In this document: positions 1,712-20,483 of the stretch, piece after piece | How positions within the stretch are numbered: the first letter of the stretch is position 1 | Layout: every line of letters begins with the position of its first letter | DNA from: a virus | Lineage: Duplodnaviria; Caudoviricetes | Reading direction: 5' to 3' (one strand) | IMG/VR virus record: IMGVR_UViG_3300025018_000525 | Location: 1-24,114 of that record | DNA length: 24,114 bases | Translations under genes and position numbers: made by a program | The notes under the pieces: generated by a model | Seen by the model: the letters and a program-made list of their open reading frames with translations, nothing else | Database searches by the model: none | Told to the model about the DNA's origin: nothing

Positions 1712-2932
1712 GTGTCCGACGTTGCGCCTCCCGCGCCTCCGATCTCCGAGCGTGGCTACGTCACGCAAACCACGAACTGGTGGTCGTCGGACGAGTTCGA
1801 GCAGACGCCCGAGCTTCGTTGGCCGCTCTCGATCGACGTCTTCGACAAGATGCGCCGCACCGACGCACAGGTCGCATCAGTCCTCCGTGCCGTGACCTTG
1901 CCGGTACGCCGCACCACGTGGCGTATCGACCCGAATGGCGCACGTGACGAGGTCGTTCAACAGATCGCGCTGGACCTCGGTCTACCGATCGTCGGCGGCG
2001 AGGTCCCCGCCACCCGCACCCGCGACCGCTTCTCGTGGCCGAACCATCTGCGCCTCGCTCTCCTGATGCTCCCGTTCGGGCACATGTTCTTCGAGCAGAA
2101 CGTCCGCATCGACGACGCCGGCAAGGCCCGCCTCCGCAAGCTCGGCCCACGAATGCCCCGAACCCTGACCGCGGTCAATGTGGCCGACGACGGCGGGCTC
2201 GTGTCGATCGAACAAGCCGCAGGAGCGTCGAAGGTCGAGATCCCGGTCAACCGTCTCGTGGCCTACGTCCACGACCAGGAGGGCGGCAACTGGCTCGGGT
2301 CGAGCCTGCTGCGCCCGGCCTACAAGCACTGGATCATCAAGGACCGGCTGCTGCGAGTGCAGGCCCAGACGATCGACCGCAACGGCATGGGCATCCCGCT
2401 CTACCAGGGCGCCCCGAACGAGGAGTCACTGGCGGACGGCGCTGCACTCGCTCAGGCGTGGCGCTCCGGTGACAACTCTGGCGCCGCCGTCCCGAACGGT
2501 TCTGACCTGGTCCTGCGTGGCGTCGAGGGCACGTTGCCCGATGCCGACCCTGCCATCCGCTACCACGACGAGCAGATCGCCCGCGCAGTGCTCGCTCACT
2601 TCCTGAACCTCGGCACCGAGACTGGCTCGTGGGCGCTCGGCTCCACGTTCGCCGACTTCTTCACCCTGTCGCTGCAGGCCTTGGCCGAGCAGATCGCGGA
2701 CGTGTCCACGCAGCACATCGTCGAAGACCTCGTCGACTGGAACTGGGGCGTCGATGAGTCGGCGCCGCGGATCGTGTTCGACGAGATCGGCAGCCAGATG
2801 CCCGCCAACGCGCAGGCCATCAAGATGCTGGTCGACGCCGGTGTGATCTTCCCCGATCGGGTCCTCGAAGAGGCGATGCGCCAACTCCACGGCCTTCCGC
2901 CCAAGGACCTACCCCCACCCGCCGCACCATGA
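1712..2932 (+). CDS. Portal protein (DUF935/Mu gp29-like)
   Basis: Follows terL, with RBS GAGGAGG. Motifs KMRRTDAQV, GSSLLRPAYKHW..K, I-RYHDEQI-AR, GSWALG. Confidence 0.9.
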   Translation: MSDVAPPAPPISERGYVTQTTNWWSSDEFEQTPELRWPLSIDVFDKMRRTDAQVASVLRAVTLPVRRTTWRIDPNGARDEVVQQIALDLGLPIVGGEVPATRTRDRFSWPNHLRLALLMLPFGHMFFEQNVRIDDAGKARLRKLGPRMPRTLTAVNVADDGGLVSIEQAAGASKVEIPVNRLVAYVHDQEGGNWLGSSLLRPAYKHWIIKDRLLRVQAQTIDRNGMGIPLYQGAPNEESLADGAALAQAWRSGDNSGAAVPNGSDLVLRGVEGTLPDADPAIRYHDEQIARAVLAHFLNLGTETGSWALGSTFADFFTLSLQALAEQIADVSTQHIVEDLVDWNWGVDESAPRIVFDEIGSQMPANAQAIKMLVDAGVIFPDRVLEEAMRQLHGLPPKDLPPPAAP

Positions 2933-4170
2933 ACGGAGCGCCGCCCGTGACCGACTTCCGCCAGCGCGTCCAGGCGCTCATGCGTCCCGACCGCCAGCCG
3001 ATCAAGGCCGAGATCCCCGGCGTCAAGGGTGACCGCTCGACGGCGATCATTCGCCTGTACGACTCGATCGACTCGTACGGTGAGTTCTGGGGCGTGTCGG
3101 CAAACGAGTTCGCCACCGTGCTCGACAGCCTGCCCGAGTCAATCCTCGAGATTCGGCTACTCATCAACTCGCCCGGCGGCGAGGTGTTCGAGGGCATCGC
3201 CATCCTCAACCAACTGCGGAACCACCCGGCCCGCACCGTCGCCGTCGTAGAGGGCATTGCCGCATCGGCCGCCTCGTTCATCGCTGCGGGCTGCGACGAG
3301 CTCATCATGTCCAAGAACGCCGAACTCATGGTCCACGACGCCTGGGGCCTGTGCGTCGGCAACGCAGACGACATGACGCAGATGGCCGAGAACCTCGGCC
3401 GGATCAGCGACAACATCGCCAGCATCTACGCCGACAAGGCTGGCGGGACCACCGAGGACTGGCGTGCCGTCATGGCCGCCGAGTCGTGGTTCTCCGCCGA
3501 CGAGGCCGTCTCGTCGGGTCTGGCCGACAGCCTCATTGACAGCGCACCGGAAGACGACGCCAAGCCGGCGAACCGCTTCGACCTGTCCATCTTCAACTTC
3601 GCCGGGCGCGCCCAAGCGCCCGAGCCCAAGATCCCCGCCGACCATCAGGACGTCGGGTCCCGCAACACCCCCCCACCACAAGGAGGCTCTGCCGTGGCGT
3701 TCAGCGACGAGCAGCTCACCGACCTGCGGCAGAAGCTCGATGTCACCGAAGACGCCGACGAGGCCACCATCCTCGCGGCTCTCGACGGTCTCATCGAGCA
3801 GATCACTGCACCGTCGACCGAAGATGACGACGCCCCGGCTCTGCCCGACGGCGTTGTCGCAATCAGCGAAGGCCAGCTCGAAGAGCTGCGCGCTGATGCC
3901 CAGGCCGGCCGCGAGGCCCGTGCTGAGCAGATCCGCAGCGAGCGTACCGCTCTCGTGGTCGCCGCCATCTCCGATGGTCGGATCGCACCCGCCGAGCGTG
4001 ACGCGTGGCTGGCCAAGCTCGATGCCGGTACCGGCGCCGAGCAGGTCCTCGCTTCGCTGAAGCCCGGGATCATCCCCGTCGGCGAGCCGGTCGGAGCCGC
4101 TGGCGCCGCCGACCTCGACACCGAGTTCAACGAATACAACGCCATCTACGGCAAGGAGGCCACGGTCTGA
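2929..4170 (+). CDS. ClpP-family prohead protease fused to a scaffold domain
   Basis: INSPGGEVFEG, GIAASAAS (catalytic Ser), MVHDAW (His) and ESWFSADEAV..GLAD, followed by an acidic helical C-terminal scaffold-like half. Confidence 0.92.
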   Translation: MNGAPPVTDFRQRVQALMRPDRQPIKAEIPGVKGDRSTAIIRLYDSIDSYGEFWGVSANEFATVLDSLPESILEIRLLINSPGGEVFEGIAILNQLRNHPARTVAVVEGIAASAASFIAAGCDELIMSKNAELMVHDAWGLCVGNADDMTQMAENLGRISDNIASIYADKAGGTTEDWRAVMAAESWFSADEAVSSGLADSLIDSAPEDDAKPANRFDLSIFNFAGRAQAPEPKIPADHQDVGSRNTPPPQGGSAVAFSDEQLTDLRQKLDVTEDADEATILAALDGLIEQITAPSTEDDDAPALPDGVVAISEGQLEELRADAQAGREARAEQIRSERTALVVAAISDGRIAPAERDAWLAKLDAGTGAEQVLASLKPGIIPVGEPVGAAGAADLDTEFNEYNAIYGKEATV

Positions 4171-4553
4171 TGTCGGACTACCTGCCCCGTTTCAAGCCCG
4201 GTCAAGCCATCACATCGACGTCCTCCGCTGCCATCACTGGCGGTCGACTCGTGGCGGTTTCCGGGTCCGGCACCACTGCCACCGCGGCCGCCGACTCCAC
4301 GACTGTCGTGGGAGTCGCCGGCCAGGACGTCGCCGCTTCCGGCGAGAAGTTCCTGATGTTCCCGATCAAGAGCGGCGTCGTGCACAAGCTCGTCGCTTCC
4401 GGCGCCATCACCGCCGGAGCCACGGTCGTGGCCGACACCGGCGGAAAGGTCAAGGCCGTCACGGTCGGGACCGCCGCCGCCGCTGGCACTGACCTCGGGA
4501 AGGCCCTGACCACCACCACCACGGACGGCGACATCGTCGACGTCCTGCCCTAG
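4170..4553 (+). CDS. Capsid decoration/cement protein (DUF2190-like)
   Basis: Small Ala/Gly/Thr/Val-rich beta protein between protease and capsid (ASGAITAGATVVADTGGK, GKAL). The ATG overlaps the upstream TGA and follows AAGGAGG. Confidence 0.75.
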   Translation: MSDYLPRFKPGQAITSTSSAAITGGRLVAVSGSGTTATAAADSTTVVGVAGQDVAASGEKFLMFPIKSGVVHKLVASGAITAGATVVADTGGKVKAVTVGTAAAAGTDLGKALTTTTTDGDIVDVLP

Positions 4554-12499: not shown

Positions 12500-13720
12500 G
12501 TGGCCGCCTGGCGCTTCTACTCAGTCGCACTTGCCGGACCAACCGCCGGGGAGGTGCGCGACGAGATCCCGCTCGGCGAGGTCACCGTCACGGACCGCCT
12601 CAAGGGCGTGGGCTCCTTGGCCGCCACCATCCCGCTACGCCACGCCAAGGCCAACCGCACGAACCTGGAGACCGAGAACACGCTCATCGTTGCTGAGCGT
12701 GACGGCGTGCTGCAGTTCGCCGGCCCGCTGCTCGACCTGAACCGAGGGCTCGGCGACGAGGTGGTGGGCCTCGGCTGTGACGGCATGTGGAACCTCGTCC
12801 GCCGCCGGGTGATCCGATCATCGGCTGGGATGACGTACGGCACCACGGCCGCCGGTGAGGTTCGGTTCTCCGCGGTCGATCAGTTCCGTATCGTGGCCGA
12901 TCTCGTGGCGCACATGGAGTCGATATCGGGCGGCAGCCTCGGTATCACCGCCAGCTACACGGCGCTCTCCGGTGTCACCCGTGATCGCACCTACGAAGCC
13001 GACAAGGGCAAGACGATCGGCGAGGCCATCGAACAACTTGCCGACGTCGAGAACGGATTCGACTGGCAGCTCGAACCGGTCGGGACCGTCGACTCGCTGT
13101 CGTTCGTGCTGCGCCTGTCCTATCCGTTCCGTGGTCGCAACACCGGGTATCGGTTCGAGCTCACCGCACCCGACGTTGACCCTGCACTGCCCGACTTCCT
13201 GCTCGACGAGGGCGGCGAACGCGTCCTCGACGAGAACGGGGAATCCATCATCGTCGGCCGGCTCGGCTCAGTGCGCTCGACTGGCTCGGGCAACATCCTG
13301 GCCGTCGGCTCTGCGGAGTCATCTCGCGGGCGACTCTCTCGGGTCACTGCCGTTGGACCGGGTGAGGGCCCCGCCCAGCTCGTGCGCCACGCCGCCGACC
13401 CCAACCTTCTCGGCGTATTGCCGCTCACCGAGGGGTCGGTCGCATACCTCGACGTCACGAACACCAACACGCTCCTGGCCCACGCTCGGCGGTCCCAGTC
13501 GGTCGACGCTCGCGCTTCCCGGCTTCCGGTGCTCCGAGTCGATCCGAACGCCAAGCCCACGTACGGCTCGTACATCACTGGCGACATCGTTCACGTGACC
13601 ATCGACGACGGCTGGGATCAGTTCGATGGTCCCGCCCGCATCGTCGGTCGCACCATCACGGTCGATCGCGTCGGTCGTGAAACCGTCGATCTCGAAGTCG
13701 CTGAGCTGGGGAGGTTCTGA
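12500..13720 (+). CDS. Minor tail/baseplate hub protein (Gp37-like)
   Basis: 406 aa, with DQFRIVADLV, IEQLADVENGFDW, GPGEG and GSYITGDIV motifs. Confidence 0.75.
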   Translation: MAAWRFYSVALAGPTAGEVRDEIPLGEVTVTDRLKGVGSLAATIPLRHAKANRTNLETENTLIVAERDGVLQFAGPLLDLNRGLGDEVVGLGCDGMWNLVRRRVIRSSAGMTYGTTAAGEVRFSAVDQFRIVADLVAHMESISGGSLGITASYTALSGVTRDRTYEADKGKTIGEAIEQLADVENGFDWQLEPVGTVDSLSFVLRLSYPFRGRNTGYRFELTAPDVDPALPDFLLDEGGERVLDENGESIIVGRLGSVRSTGSGNILAVGSAESSRGRLSRVTAVGPGEGPAQLVRHAADPNLLGVLPLTEGSVAYLDVTNTNTLLAHARRSQSVDARASRLPVLRVDPNAKPTYGSYITGDIVHVTIDDGWDQFDGPARIVGRTITVDRVGRETVDLEVAELGRF

Positions 13721-13723
13721 CGC

Positions 13724-14488
13724 ATGGAGATCACGCCGGCCGGTGACGCTGCGCAGTTCGCCAAGGAGATGGCCGACATCAAGCGGCGCCTCGCCGCCCT
13801 AGAGACGTCGCGCAAGTCGCGAACTACCACGGTCACCGACGGCGCCATCCTCATCGTCGACGACGACGGCAACACCATCGGCTCGATCGGTCGTGATCCG
13901 ACAGCACCGGAGCGCACCAGGTTCTCCGTCTTCAACGCCACCACTGGCGAGAACATCGCATCTCTCGGTCAGATCCAACTGACGAACATCAACCCGGTGG
14001 GCACAGAGCTCGACGAGGGGATGATCGTTCAGGACGAGTACGGCGTCGACATCATGCTCATCACCCGTACCCGCGGGATGCTGGCCCCGGCAGTGCAGTT
14101 CCCTTGGCTGACCCCGTCGGCGTACACGGCGGTGACGTCGGCCACGTGGGTCGATGTCTGGGAGACGCAGGTGTCGTGGTCGCCATCGACTGCGGTGCAG
14201 AGCTTCGTCGATGTCGGTTGCGACGCGGCCACGACCGGCGACGTGCGCCTGTCGATCCCCGGGGTCGCCGACACAGCCACGGTGGGGTGTGCTGCCGGCG
14301 CGTTCACGAGCCCTGACTTCAAGTGGGACACGGCGGGGCTCGGTCTCGCCGTCGGCGCCAGCTTCACCGTTCGTGTTCAGGCTCGGCGTACGTCGGGCGT
14401 CGGGAACGTGAACGTGTACCGCCCGAACCCGATGCGCTCGTGGGACACGAAGTCCTACGGCGCCGACACCGACGGCATCTATCCATGA
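13724..14488 (+). CDS. Minor tail protein with short N-terminal coiled coil
   Basis: DIKRRLAALE N-terminus followed by beta-rich sequence. Last gene of the first tail block. RBS GGAGG. Confidence 0.7.
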   Translation: MEITPAGDAAQFAKEMADIKRRLAALETSRKSRTTTVTDGAILIVDDDGNTIGSIGRDPTAPERTRFSVFNATTGENIASLGQIQLTNINPVGTELDEGMIVQDEYGVDIMLITRTRGMLAPAVQFPWLTPSAYTAVTSATWVDVWETQVSWSPSTAVQSFVDVGCDAATTGDVRLSIPGVADTATVGCAAGAFTSPDFKWDTAGLGLAVGASFTVRVQARRTSGVGNVNVYRPNPMRSWDTKSYGADTDGIYP

Positions 14489-14498
14489 TCGGAGTCTC

Positions 14499-15311
14499 GT
14501 GACCGTCACCCGCTACCCCCGAGCCGAGTGGCGCCCGCTCCCCGAGCACGACAAGCAGCCGCACATCGTGCCCACGCAGGCCATCGTGCACAGCATCGTC
14601 GGCAGCGCCAAGTCGGCATGGAACTACTTCAACACCGGCACCAACCTCGAGTCGCATCTGATCCTGCCGAAGCAGGGTGTGCCGTGGCAGTGCATGGACC
14701 TCGACCGCCAGGGCGATGCGAACTACCACGCCAACCGCCGGCCGGACGGCACCGGTGCGCACAGCATGGAGACCGAGGACAACGGTCACCCGGACGACGA
14801 TCCGTGGACCGACTCGCAGCTCGCCGAGATCATCGCTTGGTTCAACTGGGAGTGCGACACGTTCGGCATTCCTCGCCGGGTCTGTCGCACGCCTGACGAT
14901 CCAGGCATCGGGTTCCACTCCCTGTTCGGCGCCCCGTCGGAGTGGACGCCGTCACGTGGCAAGACGTGCCCGGGCCGTATCCGCATCCAGCAGTTCCACG
15001 ACATCATCGTGCCCGCAGTGCTGGCACCTCAGGAGGACGACGACATGGGTCCAGCCGCATTCGTAGTGGTCACGTACTACGCCATTCTCGGCCGCCGGCC
15101 CGAGTCGCTGCAGACGATTGCCAAGTGGGTCGAGATGATCCAGAAGGCCAACGACGGCGGCAACTCGTTCATCTCTGCCGTGGCGAACAGTGACGAGGCG
15201 AAGGCCCGTGAGGCTGCGCTCAGGGAGCATGCCAAGGCTGACGCCCCGCCGGTCGATCGGGTCCGCAGCGACGAAGAGATCCTGGCCGTCGTCAGGAAAG
15301 CACTGGGCTGA
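14499..15311 (+). CDS. Endolysin: N-acetylmuramoyl-L-alanine amidase (Amidase_2-like) plus C-terminal helical domain
   Basis: Zn-amidase motifs IVHS, SH, SMETE, WTDSQL, GFHS and KTCPG. The C-terminus YYAILGRRPE...W...NSDE is DUF4214-like. Confidence 0.88.
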   Translation: MTVTRYPRAEWRPLPEHDKQPHIVPTQAIVHSIVGSAKSAWNYFNTGTNLESHLILPKQGVPWQCMDLDRQGDANYHANRRPDGTGAHSMETEDNGHPDDDPWTDSQLAEIIAWFNWECDTFGIPRRVCRTPDDPGIGFHSLFGAPSEWTPSRGKTCPGRIRIQQFHDIIVPAVLAPQEDDDMGPAAFVVVTYYAILGRRPESLQTIAKWVEMIQKANDGGNSFISAVANSDEAKAREAALREHAKADAPPVDRVRSDEEILAVVRKALG

Positions 15312-15643
15312 TGCGTGTCGTGGTCGTCGAGGACGATCGTGACCAGCGCATGATCCTCGGCGCCCTGTTGACCGGCATCGACGTCGACATGTTCCCGCTG
15401 CCGAGTGCCGTCCCTGATGATGTGCTGGCCGCTGCCGATGTGGTCGTCACCGATTGGCTGATGGCCGGGGAGTGTGGCGCCGACCTGGTGGCCCGAGCCG
15501 CCGACCTGTGCCCTGACGCCCGGGTGTACATCCTGTCCGGCATGGCGGCCGAGATCCTGCGTGACGGCCAGGCCGGTGGGGCGACGGTGCTGTCCAAGCC
15601 GATGCCACCGACGGAGCTGGTGGAGACGATCCGAGGTGGATGA
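15311..15643 (+). CDS. Stand-alone response-regulator receiver (CheY-like) protein
   Basis: 110 aa with all receiver hallmarks: VVVVEDD acidic pocket, DVVVTDWLM phospho-Asp, G-x-D-L, ILSG (Ser/Thr) and LSKP (Lys-Pro). No output domain. Confidence 0.88.
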   Translation: MRVVVVEDDRDQRMILGALLTGIDVDMFPLPSAVPDDVLAAADVVVTDWLMAGECGADLVARAADLCPDARVYILSGMAAEILRDGQAGGATVLSKPMPPTELVETIRGG

Positions 15644-15647
15644 CGCG

Positions 15648-16091
15648 GTGGAGGATCGGATCACTCGGCACATCGACACTCGGTTCTCGGCGTTCGAGCA
15701 GGTGCTCGATACGAAGATCTCGGCGCTGTCGGATGCCATCCATCACGGCGACGCACAGGCCGCTCAGGCGGTCGCCGGACTCAGGGCCCTGCACGAGCAG
15801 AACGCAGCCGCGGTGGACGAGATCCGCCGTCACAGCCACAAGCAGGGCGAGCGGATCGGGACCATTCACGGCGAGGTCAACGACCTGCGCCGCGACGTCG
15901 TCGACCTGGCACACAAGGCCAAGGCGCGCGACATCGTCATCGACCATGAGCGCGAGCAGCGGGTCGAGAATACCGAGTGGCGCAAGGACATCAGGCGCGA
16001 CATGGGCCGCTTCGTCGCCGCCGTCAAGTGGCTCGGGCCGGTCTACACGGCCGGCCTCGTCGCCGCACTCATCAAGCTCTACGGAGGCTGA
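15648..16091 (+). CDS. Coiled-coil protein with C-terminal transmembrane segment (lysis-cassette membrane protein)
   Basis: Heptad-like helical, His-rich body with hydrophobic end WLGPVYTAGLVAALIKLY. Start is GTG 15648 after GAGGTGG (alternative GTG 15636). Confidence 0.75.
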   Translation: MEDRITRHIDTRFSAFEQVLDTKISALSDAIHHGDAQAAQAVAGLRALHEQNAAAVDEIRRHSHKQGERIGTIHGEVNDLRRDVVDLAHKAKARDIVIDHEREQRVENTEWRKDIRRDMGRFVAAVKWLGPVYTAGLVAALIKLYGG

Positions 16092-16102
16092 ACGGCCACC
16101 GT

Positions 16103-16145
16103 GCCCCGCCCCCAGCCCGTGAGGGCATGGTGACGGGGACGGGGC
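16103..16145. terminator. GC-rich stem-loop between convergent genes
   Basis: Outer arms GCCCCGCCCCC / GGGGACGGGGC with an inner CCA-GCCC-GTGA-GGGC-A-TGG hairpin. No U-tract, so the terminator role is inferred. Confidence 0.45.
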
Positions 16146-16679
16146 TCACTCCCCTGACGGGAAGCGATCTAGTGAACGAGCCTGGAGACGCCGGCGCCGG
16201 CGTTTGGCGATCTCCTGCTTCGTTTCGTAGCGGGAGACGTGAGATTGGTCGCTGCAATCCTGGGGGGCTGCGGTGCGCCGCCTCCCGCACGCGTCACATA
16301 TGGACGGCTTACCGTCCGGCGGGGGTTGTTGACGCCTCAGCTGTCGCAGTGGGGTGTCAGTTCTGGCCGAGACATCCGCCGCTTGATGCGCCATGGACCG
16401 CAGACGCTCGATGTGCACGCCCTTCCCCTCTTCCCACTTAGATCGCAGCATTTCGGAGACGTCGGCCGACACGAGTGGAACCTCAAGCGGGATCAGCGCA
16501 GCGAACTTCAAGTCGCGGGGGCTGATCCCATGCCTGAGATGCATGTGTGTCCCGAGATTACGGAACGTCCGGCCGGGGCACCACGGGCACGCCAGTTGGC
16601 TGATGTGTTCCCGCAAGACCGTCACGCTCACGTCATGTGGGTCGCGCGGATCTCGGGCTTCCCCCCCGATCCATGCCAT
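16146..16679 (-). CDS. Ros/MucR-like zinc-finger protein with a second Cys/His cluster
   Basis: CPWCPGRTFRNLGTHMHLRHGISPRDLK matches the C-x2-C..F..L..H...HG-x-S/T-P pattern. Second cluster CDAC..C..H and an Arg-rich tail. RBS AAAGGAAG upstream of the ATG. Confidence 0.72.
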   Translation of the reverse strand: MAWIGGEARDPRDPHDVSVTVLREHISQLACPWCPGRTFRNLGTHMHLRHGISPRDLKFAALIPLEVPLVSADVSEMLRSKWEEGKGVHIERLRSMAHQAADVSARTDTPLRQLRRQQPPPDGKPSICDACGRRRTAAPQDCSDQSHVSRYETKQEIAKRRRRRLQARSLDRFPSGE

Positions 16680-16732
16680 CGCTTTACTTCCTTTCGTCAG
16701 GGGTCCGGGTCACCACAACCGGGACGCCACCA

Positions 16733-16761
16733 ACAGTACACCCACCACTCGGAGGTGTCTA
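16733..16761 (-). promoter_or_regulatory. Leftward SigA-like promoter for the zinc-finger gene
   Basis: Minus strand reads TAGACA (16761-16756), 17 bp spacer, TACTGT (16738-16733). Confidence 0.6.
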
Positions 16762-16764
16762 CCC

Positions 16765-16947
16765 ATGAAGAGGGAACCTGTAGCCATTGCCGCGCTCGTG
16801 CGCTCGGTGCTCCTGATGGCCGTCGCCTTCGGCGCGCATCTGACGCCCGAGCAAATCGCCGCCGTGATGGTCACCGTGGAGATGTTCGCGGCCATCGTCG
16901 TGCGCCAGCGTGTGACGCCTGAGCCGATCATCCTTCCGGGCGACTGA
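16765..16947 (+). CDS. Holin (two TM segments)
   Basis: 60 aa, MKREPVAI...LTPEQIAAV...RQRVTP, the pattern of small actinophage holins. RBS GGAGG 16751-16755. Confidence 0.75.
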   Translation: MKREPVAIAALVRSVLLMAVAFGAHLTPEQIAAVMVTVEMFAAIVVRQRVTPEPIILPGD

Positions 16948-17471
16948 TGGTCGCCGTCGACGTCACAGCGACGATGACGCAGGACGGTGACCTCACCGTC
17001 GCTGACGCTGTCACGCAGACCACGCTCGCTGCGATCGAGACGCTTCTCGGTGGCACGCTCGCCGTCGACACCGACGTCACCGCCCTCGCCACCGAGGCGA
17101 AGCTAGAAGCCGTCAGGCTGCTGCTCGCCGGGACCCTGGCTGTCGATACCGGGCTGACCATTCCGACGCCACAGACGGACGCCGTGACCCGCGCCGAACT
17201 GGATGCGGCACCGGTCAGCACGAAGCACGCCACCGCCGACGGCACATGGGGCTACCACGCCGGCACATCTGGCACGCCGACCATCACGGGCCGCGTCGTC
17301 GGTATCACCGCTACGGGTGGCACCTCGGCTGCCTCGTTCACGATCAACGGCGGCGACACGATCACAGTTCCCGCCGACATGAGCATCGAGGTGACGCCGA
17401 GGGGCAACCTGTCGGCGCCAACCATCGTCTTCACCGGCACCGCCAGTTACTTCGTCGAGGTCGTCAGCTAG
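16947..17471 (+). CDS. Putative virion fibre/structural protein with internal duplication
   Basis: Thr/Ala/Gly-rich, with two copies of a helix ending LL(G/A)GTLAVDT and a small C-terminal beta domain. Confidence 0.65.
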   Translation: MVAVDVTATMTQDGDLTVADAVTQTTLAAIETLLGGTLAVDTDVTALATEAKLEAVRLLLAGTLAVDTGLTIPTPQTDAVTRAELDAAPVSTKHATADGTWGYHAGTSGTPTITGRVVGITATGGTSAASFTINGGDTITVPADMSIEVTPRGNLSAPTIVFTGTASYFVEVVS

Positions 17472-18199
17472 TGCCCGCCCGGTTCAAGGGCGGCGGCGGG
17501 GGTGGTGCCCCATCCGGTCCGGCCGGGTTCACTGATGACTTCTCCATCGAGCTAGTCGTCGCCGACTCCACGTCCACCCCGACCGACGCTGCTACATACG
17601 AGATCGCACTGGCCGAGTCGGACACCAACGCCGGCCAGACGGAGACGGTCACGCTCGGGTTCCCGGCTGGCAACTTCGGCGACGACAACATCGCCCCATC
17701 CGACGCTCAAGCCTTCACCGCTCGCGTGTGGCTGACCGGCAACGCCGGCTCTGGTGTCACCAGCCCGGCCAACGCTGACGGCCAGAACAACGGGACGGTG
17801 GCGACGCTCGCCACCGCACTGGCTGGGTCCAGCACGGAGACGATGACCTCGCCCATCGGCCCCGCGATCCCTGCTGGCATGACCTTGACCTCAGTCATCT
17901 ATCGGGGCTGGTTCACCTCGGCCAACACGCTCGTCACGTCCAAGGGTGAGTTGCGCGCTCGGTCGTCGTCGGCGCTGTTCGCCGAGGTCCTCATGTTCCG
18001 CAACCAGGATCTGAACACGACCGTTGACCACTCGTCAGGCGACTTCACCTTCGACCTGATCGCCGCAGGGATCGACACGTCAGCCAAGTTCGCCAGCTTG
18101 CAGATCATCCACGAGGCATCCGATGCCGCCGCAGGCGTCACCCCTCATTCGATGACCGTCGACGCCGGTTGCCTAGAGATCACGGGAGCGTTCACATGA
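17471..18199 (+). CDS. Putative virion structural protein (beta-rich)
   Basis: GTG overlaps the upstream TAG. Poly-Gly linker, then Thr/Ser/Ala-rich beta-sandwich-like sequence. Confidence 0.62.
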   Translation: MPARFKGGGGGGAPSGPAGFTDDFSIELVVADSTSTPTDAATYEIALAESDTNAGQTETVTLGFPAGNFGDDNIAPSDAQAFTARVWLTGNAGSGVTSPANADGQNNGTVATLATALAGSSTETMTSPIGPAIPAGMTLTSVIYRGWFTSANTLVTSKGELRARSSSALFAEVLMFRNQDLNTTVDHSSGDFTFDLIAAGIDTSAKFASLQIIHEASDAAAGVTPHSMTVDAGCLEITGAFT

Positions 18200-18678
18200 C
18201 CGACATTGCCGAGCACGACACCAACAGTGGACTGGTCGGGCACTGGGTCCTTGACGTCTACGAGGGCGACATCGTCCGAGACGCCGACGGCAACATCTTG
18301 AACGAGCAGGTCGACCGGCTCGAGGGTCACAACCTGATCACGACCGTCGGCAAGCAGATGATCATGGACCGCCTGTTCGGGCTGTCCGGGGTCGGCGCGA
18401 TGTCTCGCTGTGGTGTCGGCACTTCGGCCACGGCCGCGGCTGTCGGTAACACGACGCTCACGTCGGGCGCGTTCAAGGTGTTCGACTCCACCCCGACCCG
18501 TTCGTCACTGACGGTCACCGCCGTGACCACGTTCGGCACGGGTGACGCCAACATCAACTGGCAGGAGCTGGGCCTGGACAACGGCACCACGCTACTCAAT
18601 CGCATCGCTCCGATCGGGCCGTTCAACAAGACGAGCGCCGTGAGCATCATCGTCACCGTGACGGTCACGCAGTCCTGA
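18196..18678 (+). CDS. Tail-collar/fibre-attachment-like structural protein
   Basis: HNLITTVG...GVGTSATAA...TTL...F...AN..WQELGL...LLNR pattern, resembling tail-fibre N-terminal/baseplate-wedge-like domains. Confidence 0.65.
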   Translation: MTDIAEHDTNSGLVGHWVLDVYEGDIVRDADGNILNEQVDRLEGHNLITTVGKQMIMDRLFGLSGVGAMSRCGVGTSATAAAVGNTTLTSGAFKVFDSTPTRSSLTVTAVTTFGTGDANINWQELGLDNGTTLLNRIAPIGPFNKTSAVSIIVTVTVTQS

Positions 18679-18680
18679 CC

Positions 18681-18995
18681 GTGGGCTCGCTGATCGCCAG
18701 CTACAGCTTCGAGCTCGACGTGCCGCCGCAGGTAATCGAGGGGCCACTGACAGGCACGGTCGACGCCGACGCGCTGACTGGCGCCGTCATCGCCGACACG
18801 CTCACCGGGACGCTCGGGCCGGGCACTCCCGACTACCTGCGCGACGAGTTCGGCGAGCCGGTCCTGGACGAACTGGGCGGCTTCATCTGGGTCGCTGCCG
18901 CTGCGATCACGCTCACCGGGACCATCACGGATGCCGCGCTCACGGGGACCATCACCACGGAACTGATCGAGGGGACTACTGCATGTCAACCCTGA
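18681..18995 (+). CDS. Small structural protein with LTG(T/A) repeats
   Basis: LTG(T/A) repeats at about 9-residue spacing, interrupted by PDYLRDEFGEPVLDELGGFI. Confidence 0.6.
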   Translation: MGSLIASYSFELDVPPQVIEGPLTGTVDADALTGAVIADTLTGTLGPGTPDYLRDEFGEPVLDELGGFIWVAAAAITLTGTITDAALTGTITTELIEGTTACQP

Positions 18996-19318
18996 CGACG
19001 CTCTCCCAGGCCGACGTCGAAACCCGCATCCGCTCATGGGCGGTACGTGACGCAGCGGGTGACCTCGTGGTCGTGGACGCCATGAAGTTCTACGCCCGGC
19101 TGAACAGGTCGTCCACGCCGATCGTGTGGACCACTGACGGCGCCGGCGGGAGCATCGCCGGCGTTGTCGACAATGGCGACGGGACCGGCACATGGACGGT
19201 CACCGCGGGCAACCTCCCTCCTGCCGACTCCTACGACTGGTGGGCGCTGGCAACTGTCGGCGCCGAAGAGATCATCCCGACTGCCCTTGAGGGCACGTTC
19301 CGGATCACCGACCGATGA
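18983..19318 (+). CDS. BppU-N-like/Ig-like adaptor protein
   Basis: 111 aa all-beta pattern (Q.D....W.VRDAAG...G...TV...YDW...EGTFRI), located just before a tailspike gene. Confidence 0.55.
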   Translation: MSTLTTLSQADVETRIRSWAVRDAAGDLVVVDAMKFYARLNRSSTPIVWTTDGAGGSIAGVVDNGDGTGTWTVTAGNLPPADSYDWWALATVGAEEIIPTALEGTFRITDR

Positions 19319-19346
19319 CCGATCACTCCGACAGCAAGGGGACCTC

Positions 19347-20483
19347 ATGGGCCTGTTGAACAACTACCCGGTCCGGACGACGATCACGTCCGGTGACCGG
19401 GGCCTCGGCTCCGACGACGGCACCACCGTCCTGTTCACCCCCGACGCTTACGGCGCCTACGTGGCCGGACGGCTCGGCGTGTACAACGTGTTGGACTACG
19501 GCGCGGTCGGGGACGGGGTCACCGATGACACCGCTGCTATCCATGCGGCCATCTCGGCCGCTGGGGCGGCTGGCGGCGGCGTCGTATGGCTGGTGGGGAC
19601 GTTCCTCGTCACCGGTCTGACGGTGTCCAGCAACAACGTCCACATCCGCGGCGCCGGACGACACGCCACCACCATCAAGTCACACGCGTCCATCGGGTCG
19701 AACCCCGTCCTGACGATCGACGGCCAGTATTGCAGCGTGCGGAGCCTCACTCTGAACGGCAACAGCCTCGGGGCATCACTGCTCTACCTCAAGCGGTCCC
19801 GCTTCGTCGCTGACGATCTCTACTGCATGAACTCGGCGACCCATGGGATTCGAGTCGCCGGCACGGCAGGGAACACCGCCCACGCCGGGCAGTTCACCAA
19901 CATCTACGTCATCGCCTGCGCCGGCAATGGTGTATTCCTCGACGCCTATGCGTACGACACCGAGTTCACAAACCTGTGGGTGGGGCAATGCGGCGTCGGA
20001 GTCCGCGCCCAGGACGGGGCACTGTTCTTCGAGAACCTCCACGTGTGGGGCTGCACTGGCAACGGGGTCGAGGTGAGGGCGAATGCCAGCAGGTTCTCAA
20101 ACGTGTACCTGGAGAGCAATGGCGGCCGCGGCATTGACATCTTCAATTGCAGCAACATCTCGGTCATCGGTGGCGTTCTGTGGAAGAACGGCGGCGCCGG
20201 TGCAACGTGCAACACGGCCAACCGCAACCGGTTCGTGGGGCTTGGCGTCTACGACAACACTGGCGCCGGGATCAGCATCAACCCCGGCAACTACAACCAA
20301 ATCACGGGCTGCAACTTCTTCGACGATCAGGGCACCAAGACGCAGACCTATGGAGTCAGTCTTGGCGCCGGGTCCACATCCAACATCGTCGCCAACGCCG
20401 TCGCACGTGCAGGGGACCACCTGACGGGGAGCATCCTCGATTCGGGTACGACGTCGGTCCTGACGGGGAACGTCACCGCCTAA
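19347..20483 (+). CDS. Tailspike/depolymerase with right-handed beta-helix (pectate-lyase-3-like)
   Basis: YNVLDYGAVGDGVTDDTAAIHAAI, IRGAG...TTIK, then Asn/Gly/Cys-rich beta-helix rungs. ATG 19347 follows AAGGGG. Confidence 0.85.
   Translation: MGLLNNYPVRTTITSGDRGLGSDDGTTVLFTPDAYGAYVAGRLGVYNVLDYGAVGDGVTDDTAAIHAAISAAGAAGGGVVWLVGTFLVTGLTVSSNNVHIRGAGRHATTIKSHASIGSNPVLTIDGQYCSVRSLTLNGNSLGASLLYLKRSRFVADDLYCMNSATHGIRVAGTAGNTAHAGQFTNIYVIACAGNGVFLDAYAYDTEFTNLWVGQCGVGVRAQDGALFFENLHVWGCTGNGVEVRANASRFSNVYLESNGGRGIDIFNCSNISVIGGVLWKNGGAGATCNTANRNRFVGLGVYDNTGAGISINPGNYNQITGCNFFDDQGTKTQTYGVSLGAGSTSNIVANAVARAGDHLTGSILDSGTTSVLTGNVTA

Follow-up and report, generated by a model that had tools for sequence, protein, structure and literature searches.

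Why does a phage carry a two-component receiver domain directly behind its endolysin gene, and could such a protein shift the time at which the host is lysed? Phage lysis is known to be timed by holin build-up, antiholins and superinfection signals, and a search of the literature found no work tying a two-component receiver to it. The stretch of DNA analysed here (the window) is a linear virus record of 24,114 bases, about 52% complete, with 62-70% G+C. By Pfam, its genes run in the order terminase, portal, Clp-type protease, capsid, tape measure and distal tail protein, followed by the lysis genes; therefore, the window represents a siphovirus late region. An actinobacterium is the likely host, because the named relatives of the amidase are endolysins of Streptomyces and Brevibacterium phages (26-30% identity) and because the amidase also matches a prophage-like locus in an Actinomycetes assembly (49% identity). 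Nearly the whole stretch is contained in a single sequencing run, an aquifer metagenome from which it may derive; no RNA run was listed as containing it, which carries no information on expression. A Logan contig, possibly from the same sample, covers positions 13000-19000 unbroken and without indels, with one substitution outside the receiver gene. Beyond the lysis genes, tail-like or adhesin genes form another block (16947-20483, plus strand), the last gene of which encodes a pectate-lyase-like beta-helix protein.

The receiver and the genes around it

The gene at 15311-15643 (plus strand) encodes a real, intact stand-alone response-regulator receiver domain of 110 residues. The Response_reg search recommended in an earlier note on this DNA gave a PF00072 match above the cut-off (E 7.6e-9, 36.2 bits against 30.2) over residues 3-108 and profile positions 1-111, and a Pfam search of the open reading frame (ORF) found no other domain. 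The AlphaFold2 model, built on a 29-row alignment, reaches a pLDDT of 93.6 and has five strands and five helices in the (beta-alpha)5 fold. Almost all of its top 50 PDB matches in Foldseek are receivers (TM 0.76-0.87), with PhoB, CheY and Spo0F at about 0.8, and the top match among the viral structures of BFVD is gp30 of Alteromonas phage V22 (E 6.8e-8, TM 0.85). According to the accessible part of one source, five catalytic positions (DD, D, T/S and K) define a receiver versus a pseudo-receiver.[PMC12632262] All five are filled here, by E7/D8, D48, S76 and K96; the motif residues E7-D8-D9, D48, S76 and K96-P97 are those which the earlier note had read from the sequence, and Gly stands at T+1.

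The domain departs from the norm in carrying Val93 at K-3, Ala instead of Pro at D+4 and a short alpha2. Tyr or Phe occupies K-3 in 86% of receivers, as stated in the same accessible text,[PMC12632262] and with Val93 the domain lacks the aromatic residue of canonical Y-T-coupled (CheY-type) receivers. As had been claimed, the polypeptide has no output domain: the 110-residue ORF stops at 15643, and the Logan contig shows no indel, which also speaks against a receiver–membrane protein fusion split by a frameshift or an assembly error. Codon use is like that of the rest of the phage (GC3 0.83, CAI 0.64). On the reading favoured below, the receiver would be phosphorylated by a host kinase or a small phosphodonor. 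A profile search for HATPase_c agrees with the earlier note that the window holds no histidine kinase, in a contig that is only about 52% complete and thus lacks half of the genome.

The preceding gene (14499-15311, plus strand) encodes the endolysin, an N-acetylmuramoyl-L-alanine amidase of 270 residues that matches PF01510 (Amidase_2, 29.3 bits against a cut-off of 26) and the phrog_1493 endolysin (E 1.5e-8). H31, H140 and C157, which we take to be the His-His-Cys zinc ligands of Amidase_2, are invariant in 25 homologues. The C-terminal helical domain has a weak DUF4214-like match, and no transmembrane (TM) or signal helix was found in the protein (best hydropathy 0.78). The start codon of the receiver does overlap the amidase TGA by one base (TGATG), as first noted, and the two proteins are presumably co-expressed. 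Overlaps are routine in this phage, occurring at 12 of the 28 same-strand junctions and at six of them by one base; therefore, the overlap is no special evidence of a coupling to the endolysin, contrary to the weight first placed on it.

The gene that follows (15636-16091, plus strand) encodes a charged helical protein of 151 residues with a single predicted C-terminal membrane helix, which is likely a second holin-like lysis protein. It had been described as a membrane-anchored gene directly behind the receiver. The gene does adjoin the receiver and its product is helical, but it may start at GTG 15636, as in the collection record, which gives an 8-nt overlap with the receiver, or at 15648 (147 residues), and the hydropathy of the membrane helix is borderline (1.49 in the best 19-residue stretch). 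A ribosome-binding-like motif accompanies each of these in-frame GTG codons, which are spaced by four codons, and a dual start is possible. The single-sequence model is all-helix at low confidence (pLDDT 53), and the hydrophobic share at heptad positions a and d is 0.72 in the best register. The match to XhlA stays below the cut-off (E 0.034, 14.8 bits against 34.7), DUF2746 gave no match at E 0.1, and a homologue search from the 15648 start found no related sequences. Its ESM Atlas neighbours, by language-model features and with no HMM match, are viral DUF7201-like clusters (0.93).

A reverse-strand ORF of 177 residues (16146-16679) comes next, with a Cys/His zinc-finger-like stretch and weak Pfam matches only (ROS_MUCR, E 0.064). 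It has the lowest CAI (0.48) and GC3 (0.73) of 33 genes and is likely a later insertion that parted the holin from the other lysis genes. The holin itself (16765-16947, plus strand) has 60 residues and two predicted TM helices, recognized by phrog_9752 (E 2.4e-5) and two hydrophobic segments, and its homologues occur downstream of related amidases. The receiver does lie upstream of the holin, as the earlier note stated, but the holin begins 673 nt beyond the 15636 gene, past the reverse-strand ORF. A scan of 13500-17500 found neither promoters nor terminators.

Receivers and lysis genes in other phages

Close homologues of the receiver were found neither in viral_contigs nor, by tblastn, in INPHARED; a set of 5.8 billion sequences returned the receiver alone, and metagenome_contigs returned only its own record. 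Against 1.84 billion representatives, 542 matches were obtained at E 0.001, all of them ordinary receivers by size and identity, and the best are mostly 27-47% identical. The nearest sequences and Atlas clusters are cellular receivers. Among viral records with a related amidase, none of 50 contained PF00072 (near-complete records: 0 of 15), and among further viral records none of 30 did (28 with a related capsid and two with the amidase; mostly fragments, near-complete 0 of 3), while the same search recovered the window's own receiver gene as a positive control. Likewise, a profile made from 49 viral receivers, with the window's row left out, matched only the window among 83 sequences. The receiver is therefore dispensable in this phage group.

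The membrane gene has a different distribution. Among 52 receiver-less amidase loci, surveyed with crude gene chaining and a hydropathy filter, 26 have a single-TM charged gene as one of the four downstream, and in 10 of these 26 the TM helix is C-terminal, as in the 15636 protein. The 15636 gene thus seems to be part of the usual set of genes in these cassettes, to which the receiver seems to have been added, and the adjacency of the two could come from insertion into any such cassette. A profile of these 10 receiver-less C-terminal-TM genes did not match the 15636 protein (E 1.6).

Outside this group, stand-alone receivers were found in seven Alteromonas phages (V22 gp30, A5 gp11, R8W gp48, R9Y2 gp12, PB15, XX1924 and V19 gp10) among nine cultured phage records chosen on their names in two tblastn lists. 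In 7/7, the gene immediately upstream of the receiver is a small helical one, which passes the single-TM filter in 5/7, and lysis genes lie within five genes of the receiver in 6/7. The receiver stop is overlapped by a GH108 lysozyme gene in R9Y2 and by an M15 peptidase gene in PB15; a 3-TM holin follows two genes after the receiver in XX1924 and PB15, a holin precedes it by two genes in R8W, an annotated endolysin comes three genes after it in A5, and an annotated amidase lies two genes before it in V22. In V19, the TM-helical gene and the receiver (gp11-gp10, 2727-3450 of the extracted locus) are inverted among tail genes, no lysis genes were found near them within the 6 kb examined, and gp10 has neither the phospho-Asp nor the Lys. 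Therefore, the pair can move as a unit. The receivers of R8W, V22 and A5 are in print as PhoB or CheY-like auxiliary metabolic genes; the accessible parts of the three papers draw no link to lysis.[PMC8228385, PMC7289586, PMC10579305] No lysis link was found in the other two cultured records, Stenotrophomonas phage Bhz63 and Komp_PAO1_1. The 40-kb genome of Bhz63 carries a complete PhoP-like regulator and a sensor-kinase-like gene (3001-4547 of its extracted locus).

IMG/VR was sampled with a degenerate receiver motif that was not chosen for lysis. From about 310 loci, 124 were taken, and all 130 of 130 matches were receivers; the 80 loci with flanks, less seven near-duplicates and one cut gene, comprised 42 stand-alone receivers (175 residues or fewer) and 30 multidomain ones. 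Lysis labels were assigned by Pfam (three genes on each side) and PHROGs (same strand, two genes on each side). A labelled lysis gene on the same strand within two genes was present for 4/42 stand-alone versus 0/30 multidomain receivers, which is not significant (Fisher p=0.11); the loci are L105 (GH108), L108 (Amidase_2), L134 (phrog_894) and L162 (holin). In L104, L125 and L158 the receivers sit among unlabelled membrane genes, and adding these loci gives 7/42 versus 0/30 (p=0.018), a count that is not relied on. The other 35 of the 42 stand-alone receivers occur in other contexts. In a second, GC-biased motif sample (24 new loci, two of them not gene-called), a labelled lysis neighbour was found for 0/14 stand-alone or near-stand-alone receivers, 10 of which had scannable neighbours, and a strict window-like motif returned one contig, with no lysis link by PHROGs. 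The lysis-gene association on which the earlier note's proposal depended holds in most of the Alteromonas phages and in part of the survey, but not in the window's relatives, in the GC-biased sample or as a significant enrichment.

Each of the four lysis-labelled stand-alone receivers shares 4 nt with a single-TM helical gene (L105, L134 and L162, with L108 established by hand); the order in L108 is amidase, 2-TM gene, receiver and TM-helical gene, and L125 and L158 share the window's order of receiver and then C-terminal-TM gene. A single-TM charged gene adjoins the receiver in 5/42 cases versus 8/113 for other genes (p=0.25), with a null that is inflated because four of its eight adjacencies come from the same lysis-like loci. 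A post hoc test limited to overlaps gives 5/42 versus 3/113 (p=0.034) and is not relied on; all five of these receiver overlaps measure 4 nt. The pairing of a receiver with a single-TM helical gene recurs in lysis clusters of unrelated phages. HATPase_c was not found in the complete genomes of L125 and L104, both of which have the layout, and the 15636 protein shows no detectable homology to the partners of the lysis-linked receivers (E 0.24).

In an alignment of the window receiver with seven IMG/VR lysis-linked copies, D8, D48, K96 and P97 are invariant, so that conservation of the phospho-Asp, which the earlier note made a condition of its proposal, is borne out in these copies and fails in V19 gp10. 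In a quick tree of 69 rows, mostly unresolved, the window receiver is no nearer to lysis-linked receivers than to others and falls outside the Alteromonas phage CheY-like group; the cellular rows were picked by likeness to the window, and their grouping is circular. A single clade of the 13 lysis-linked receivers is weakly rejected (p-AU 0.0455, for a group with long branches that was named after the loci had been seen), which suggests repeated recruitment of receivers into lysis clusters.

Some further viral receivers were observed in the survey. In a 195-kb viral record (L224, 1575-4657, minus strand), a histidine kinase gene is followed by genes for a stand-alone receiver, a helical-tailed receiver and a coiled-coil protein with a C-terminal TM helix, which makes a full relay ending at the same kind of membrane gene. 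Closely related CheY-like genes occur in three low-GC viral records, L113, L124 and L160 (receiver at about 2830-3240), and in the first two they lie between the DNA end protector and head closure genes. A viral contig of 71% G+C (L229, 2847-3694, plus strand) has two tandem CpdR-like receivers.

Possible roles of the receiver

The reading favoured here, although held tentatively, is that the receiver is a lysis accessory which binds the neighbouring holin-like protein under host phosphorylation and so shifts lysis time. A host kinase or a small phosphodonor would supply the receiver with a phosphoryl group, the receiver would bind the predicted single-TM, holin-like 15636 protein through that protein's helical, cytoplasmic portion, and this binding would shift the time of lysis; we infer the binding partner, its holin-like role and the effect on timing. 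That a receiver and a single-TM helical gene are repeatedly found closely coupled, whichever of them comes first and next to endolysins of different kinds, suggests the membrane protein as the target and the host as the source of the donor. The intact active site, the Gly at T+1 and the overlap of the receiver with both neighbours are consistent with this role. According to the accessible part of one source, single-domain receivers work through partner binding or by serving as a phosphate shuttle or sink,[PMC5964349] and LysF1b, a single-TM, highly charged protein of mycobacteriophages, is a shown lysis-timing factor in the available text of another.[PMC13056207] Against an accessory role stand the 80 related records without PF00072, the enrichment that is not significant, and V19 gp10 with its lost phospho-Asp and Lys. 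More doubtful, yet possible, is the wider proposal of a lysis clock that directly reads the two-component or metabolic state of the host: in phages whose hosts are unrelated, receivers of host type would have been taken repeatedly into the lysis cassettes, where host kinases or acetyl phosphate would phosphorylate them and they would bind a single-TM holin-like protein and set the lysis time.

It is unlikely, but worth weighing, that the receiver, expressed late, serves as a phosphate sink or a competitor which drains a host histidine kinase (e.g., one of envelope stress) and blunts wall repair during endolysin action, leaving the phage membrane protein untouched. Acting as a sink or shuttle is an established mode of single-domain receivers in the accessible part of the source.[PMC5964349] Without an output domain and a K-3 aromatic residue, no canonical Y-T output is expected, no kinase was found in the contig, and the cellular nearest sequences and Atlas clusters are what host capture would produce. 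However, a sink leaves unexplained both the repeated overlap with a single-TM helical gene and the V19 pair with its lost Asp. Leu/Met at D+2/T+2 of the receiver would favour slow self-dephosphorylation, which would suit a sink poorly.

A second rather improbable alternative is that the receiver is a passenger (moron) which landed in the variable region behind the endolysin, with a role unrelated to lysis or with little role at all. The absence of PF00072 from all 80 related viral records fits such an arrival, as do the other apparent insertion in the same stretch (16146-16679), the many phage contexts in which stand-alone receivers occur (35/42), the non-significant enrichment tests and the routine nature of overlaps. 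Yet the phage-like codon use and the retention of all catalytic residues at only about 30-47% identity to the best relatives argue for long selection, and the same three-part layout is seen in several unrelated lineages. Very unlikely is a role, not dependent on phosphorylation, as an adaptor or chaperone of the membrane partner or of the endolysin. In its favour, V19 gp10 keeps its pairing without the phospho-Asp and Lys, and in the window receiver alpha2 is short and Ala and Val occupy D+4 and K-3; the invariance of D8, D48, K96 and P97 in the window and the seven lysis-linked copies speaks against it.

The receiver is a plain PF00072 member, and phage copies are already in print as auxiliary genes. 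If the accessory role is true, phages could sense the phospho-signalling of the host as lysis occurs, and the 'CheY' and 'PhoB' auxiliary metabolic genes of Alteromonas phages would need re-reading. The cultured carriers PB15, R9Y2, R8W, A5 and V22 make the lysis link directly testable. The window adds a divergent, high-GC case of actinobacterial type, seemingly acquired separately and present as a single copy with no close homologues.

Comparison with known systems

The window receiver shares its fold, five catalytic residues and absence of an output domain with the single-domain response regulators CheY, Spo0F, CpdR and MrrA; CheY is its best PDB sequence match, and a CpdR-like cluster is its top Atlas structure match (TM 0.86). 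Unlike these, it is phage-encoded, lies in a lysis operon with no kinase found in the partial contig, and has no K-3 aromatic residue, no FATGUY-type beta4 and a short alpha2. The FATGUY motif surrounds the conserved Thr in the single-domain regulators MrrA and SdrG, whereas beta4 of the window receiver reads Y-I-L-S-G-M.

The CheY-like genes of Alteromonas phages provide the same arrangement of a stand-alone receiver beside a small gene for a helical membrane protein, in most cases within a group of lysis genes. Their products are only 15-24% identical to the window receiver and carry a C-terminal helical extension that it lacks, and the partner gene lies upstream in these phages but downstream in the window.

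Phage N4 offers another likeness in gp62/gp63, where the proposal is that the product of a separate small gene controls a single-TM holin via its cytoplasmic part.[PMC12642591] The proposed signal there is superinfection, and in the accessible text the term 'Receiver domain' denotes a cluster of mutations in gp63 and not a two-component receiver fold; as a precedent it was set aside as a match of name only.[PMC12642591] Closer in composition is the LysF1a/LysF1b cassette of mycobacteriophages Girr and NBJ, for which the available part of the report describes no receiver.[PMC13056207] As described there, LysF1b has an N-terminal TM helix, a charged C-terminal tail and DUF2746, whereas the 15636 protein has a predicted C-terminal TM helix and no DUF2746 match. 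Both actinophage cassettes combine an endolysin, a 2-TM holin and a single-TM, highly charged protein.[PMC13056207]
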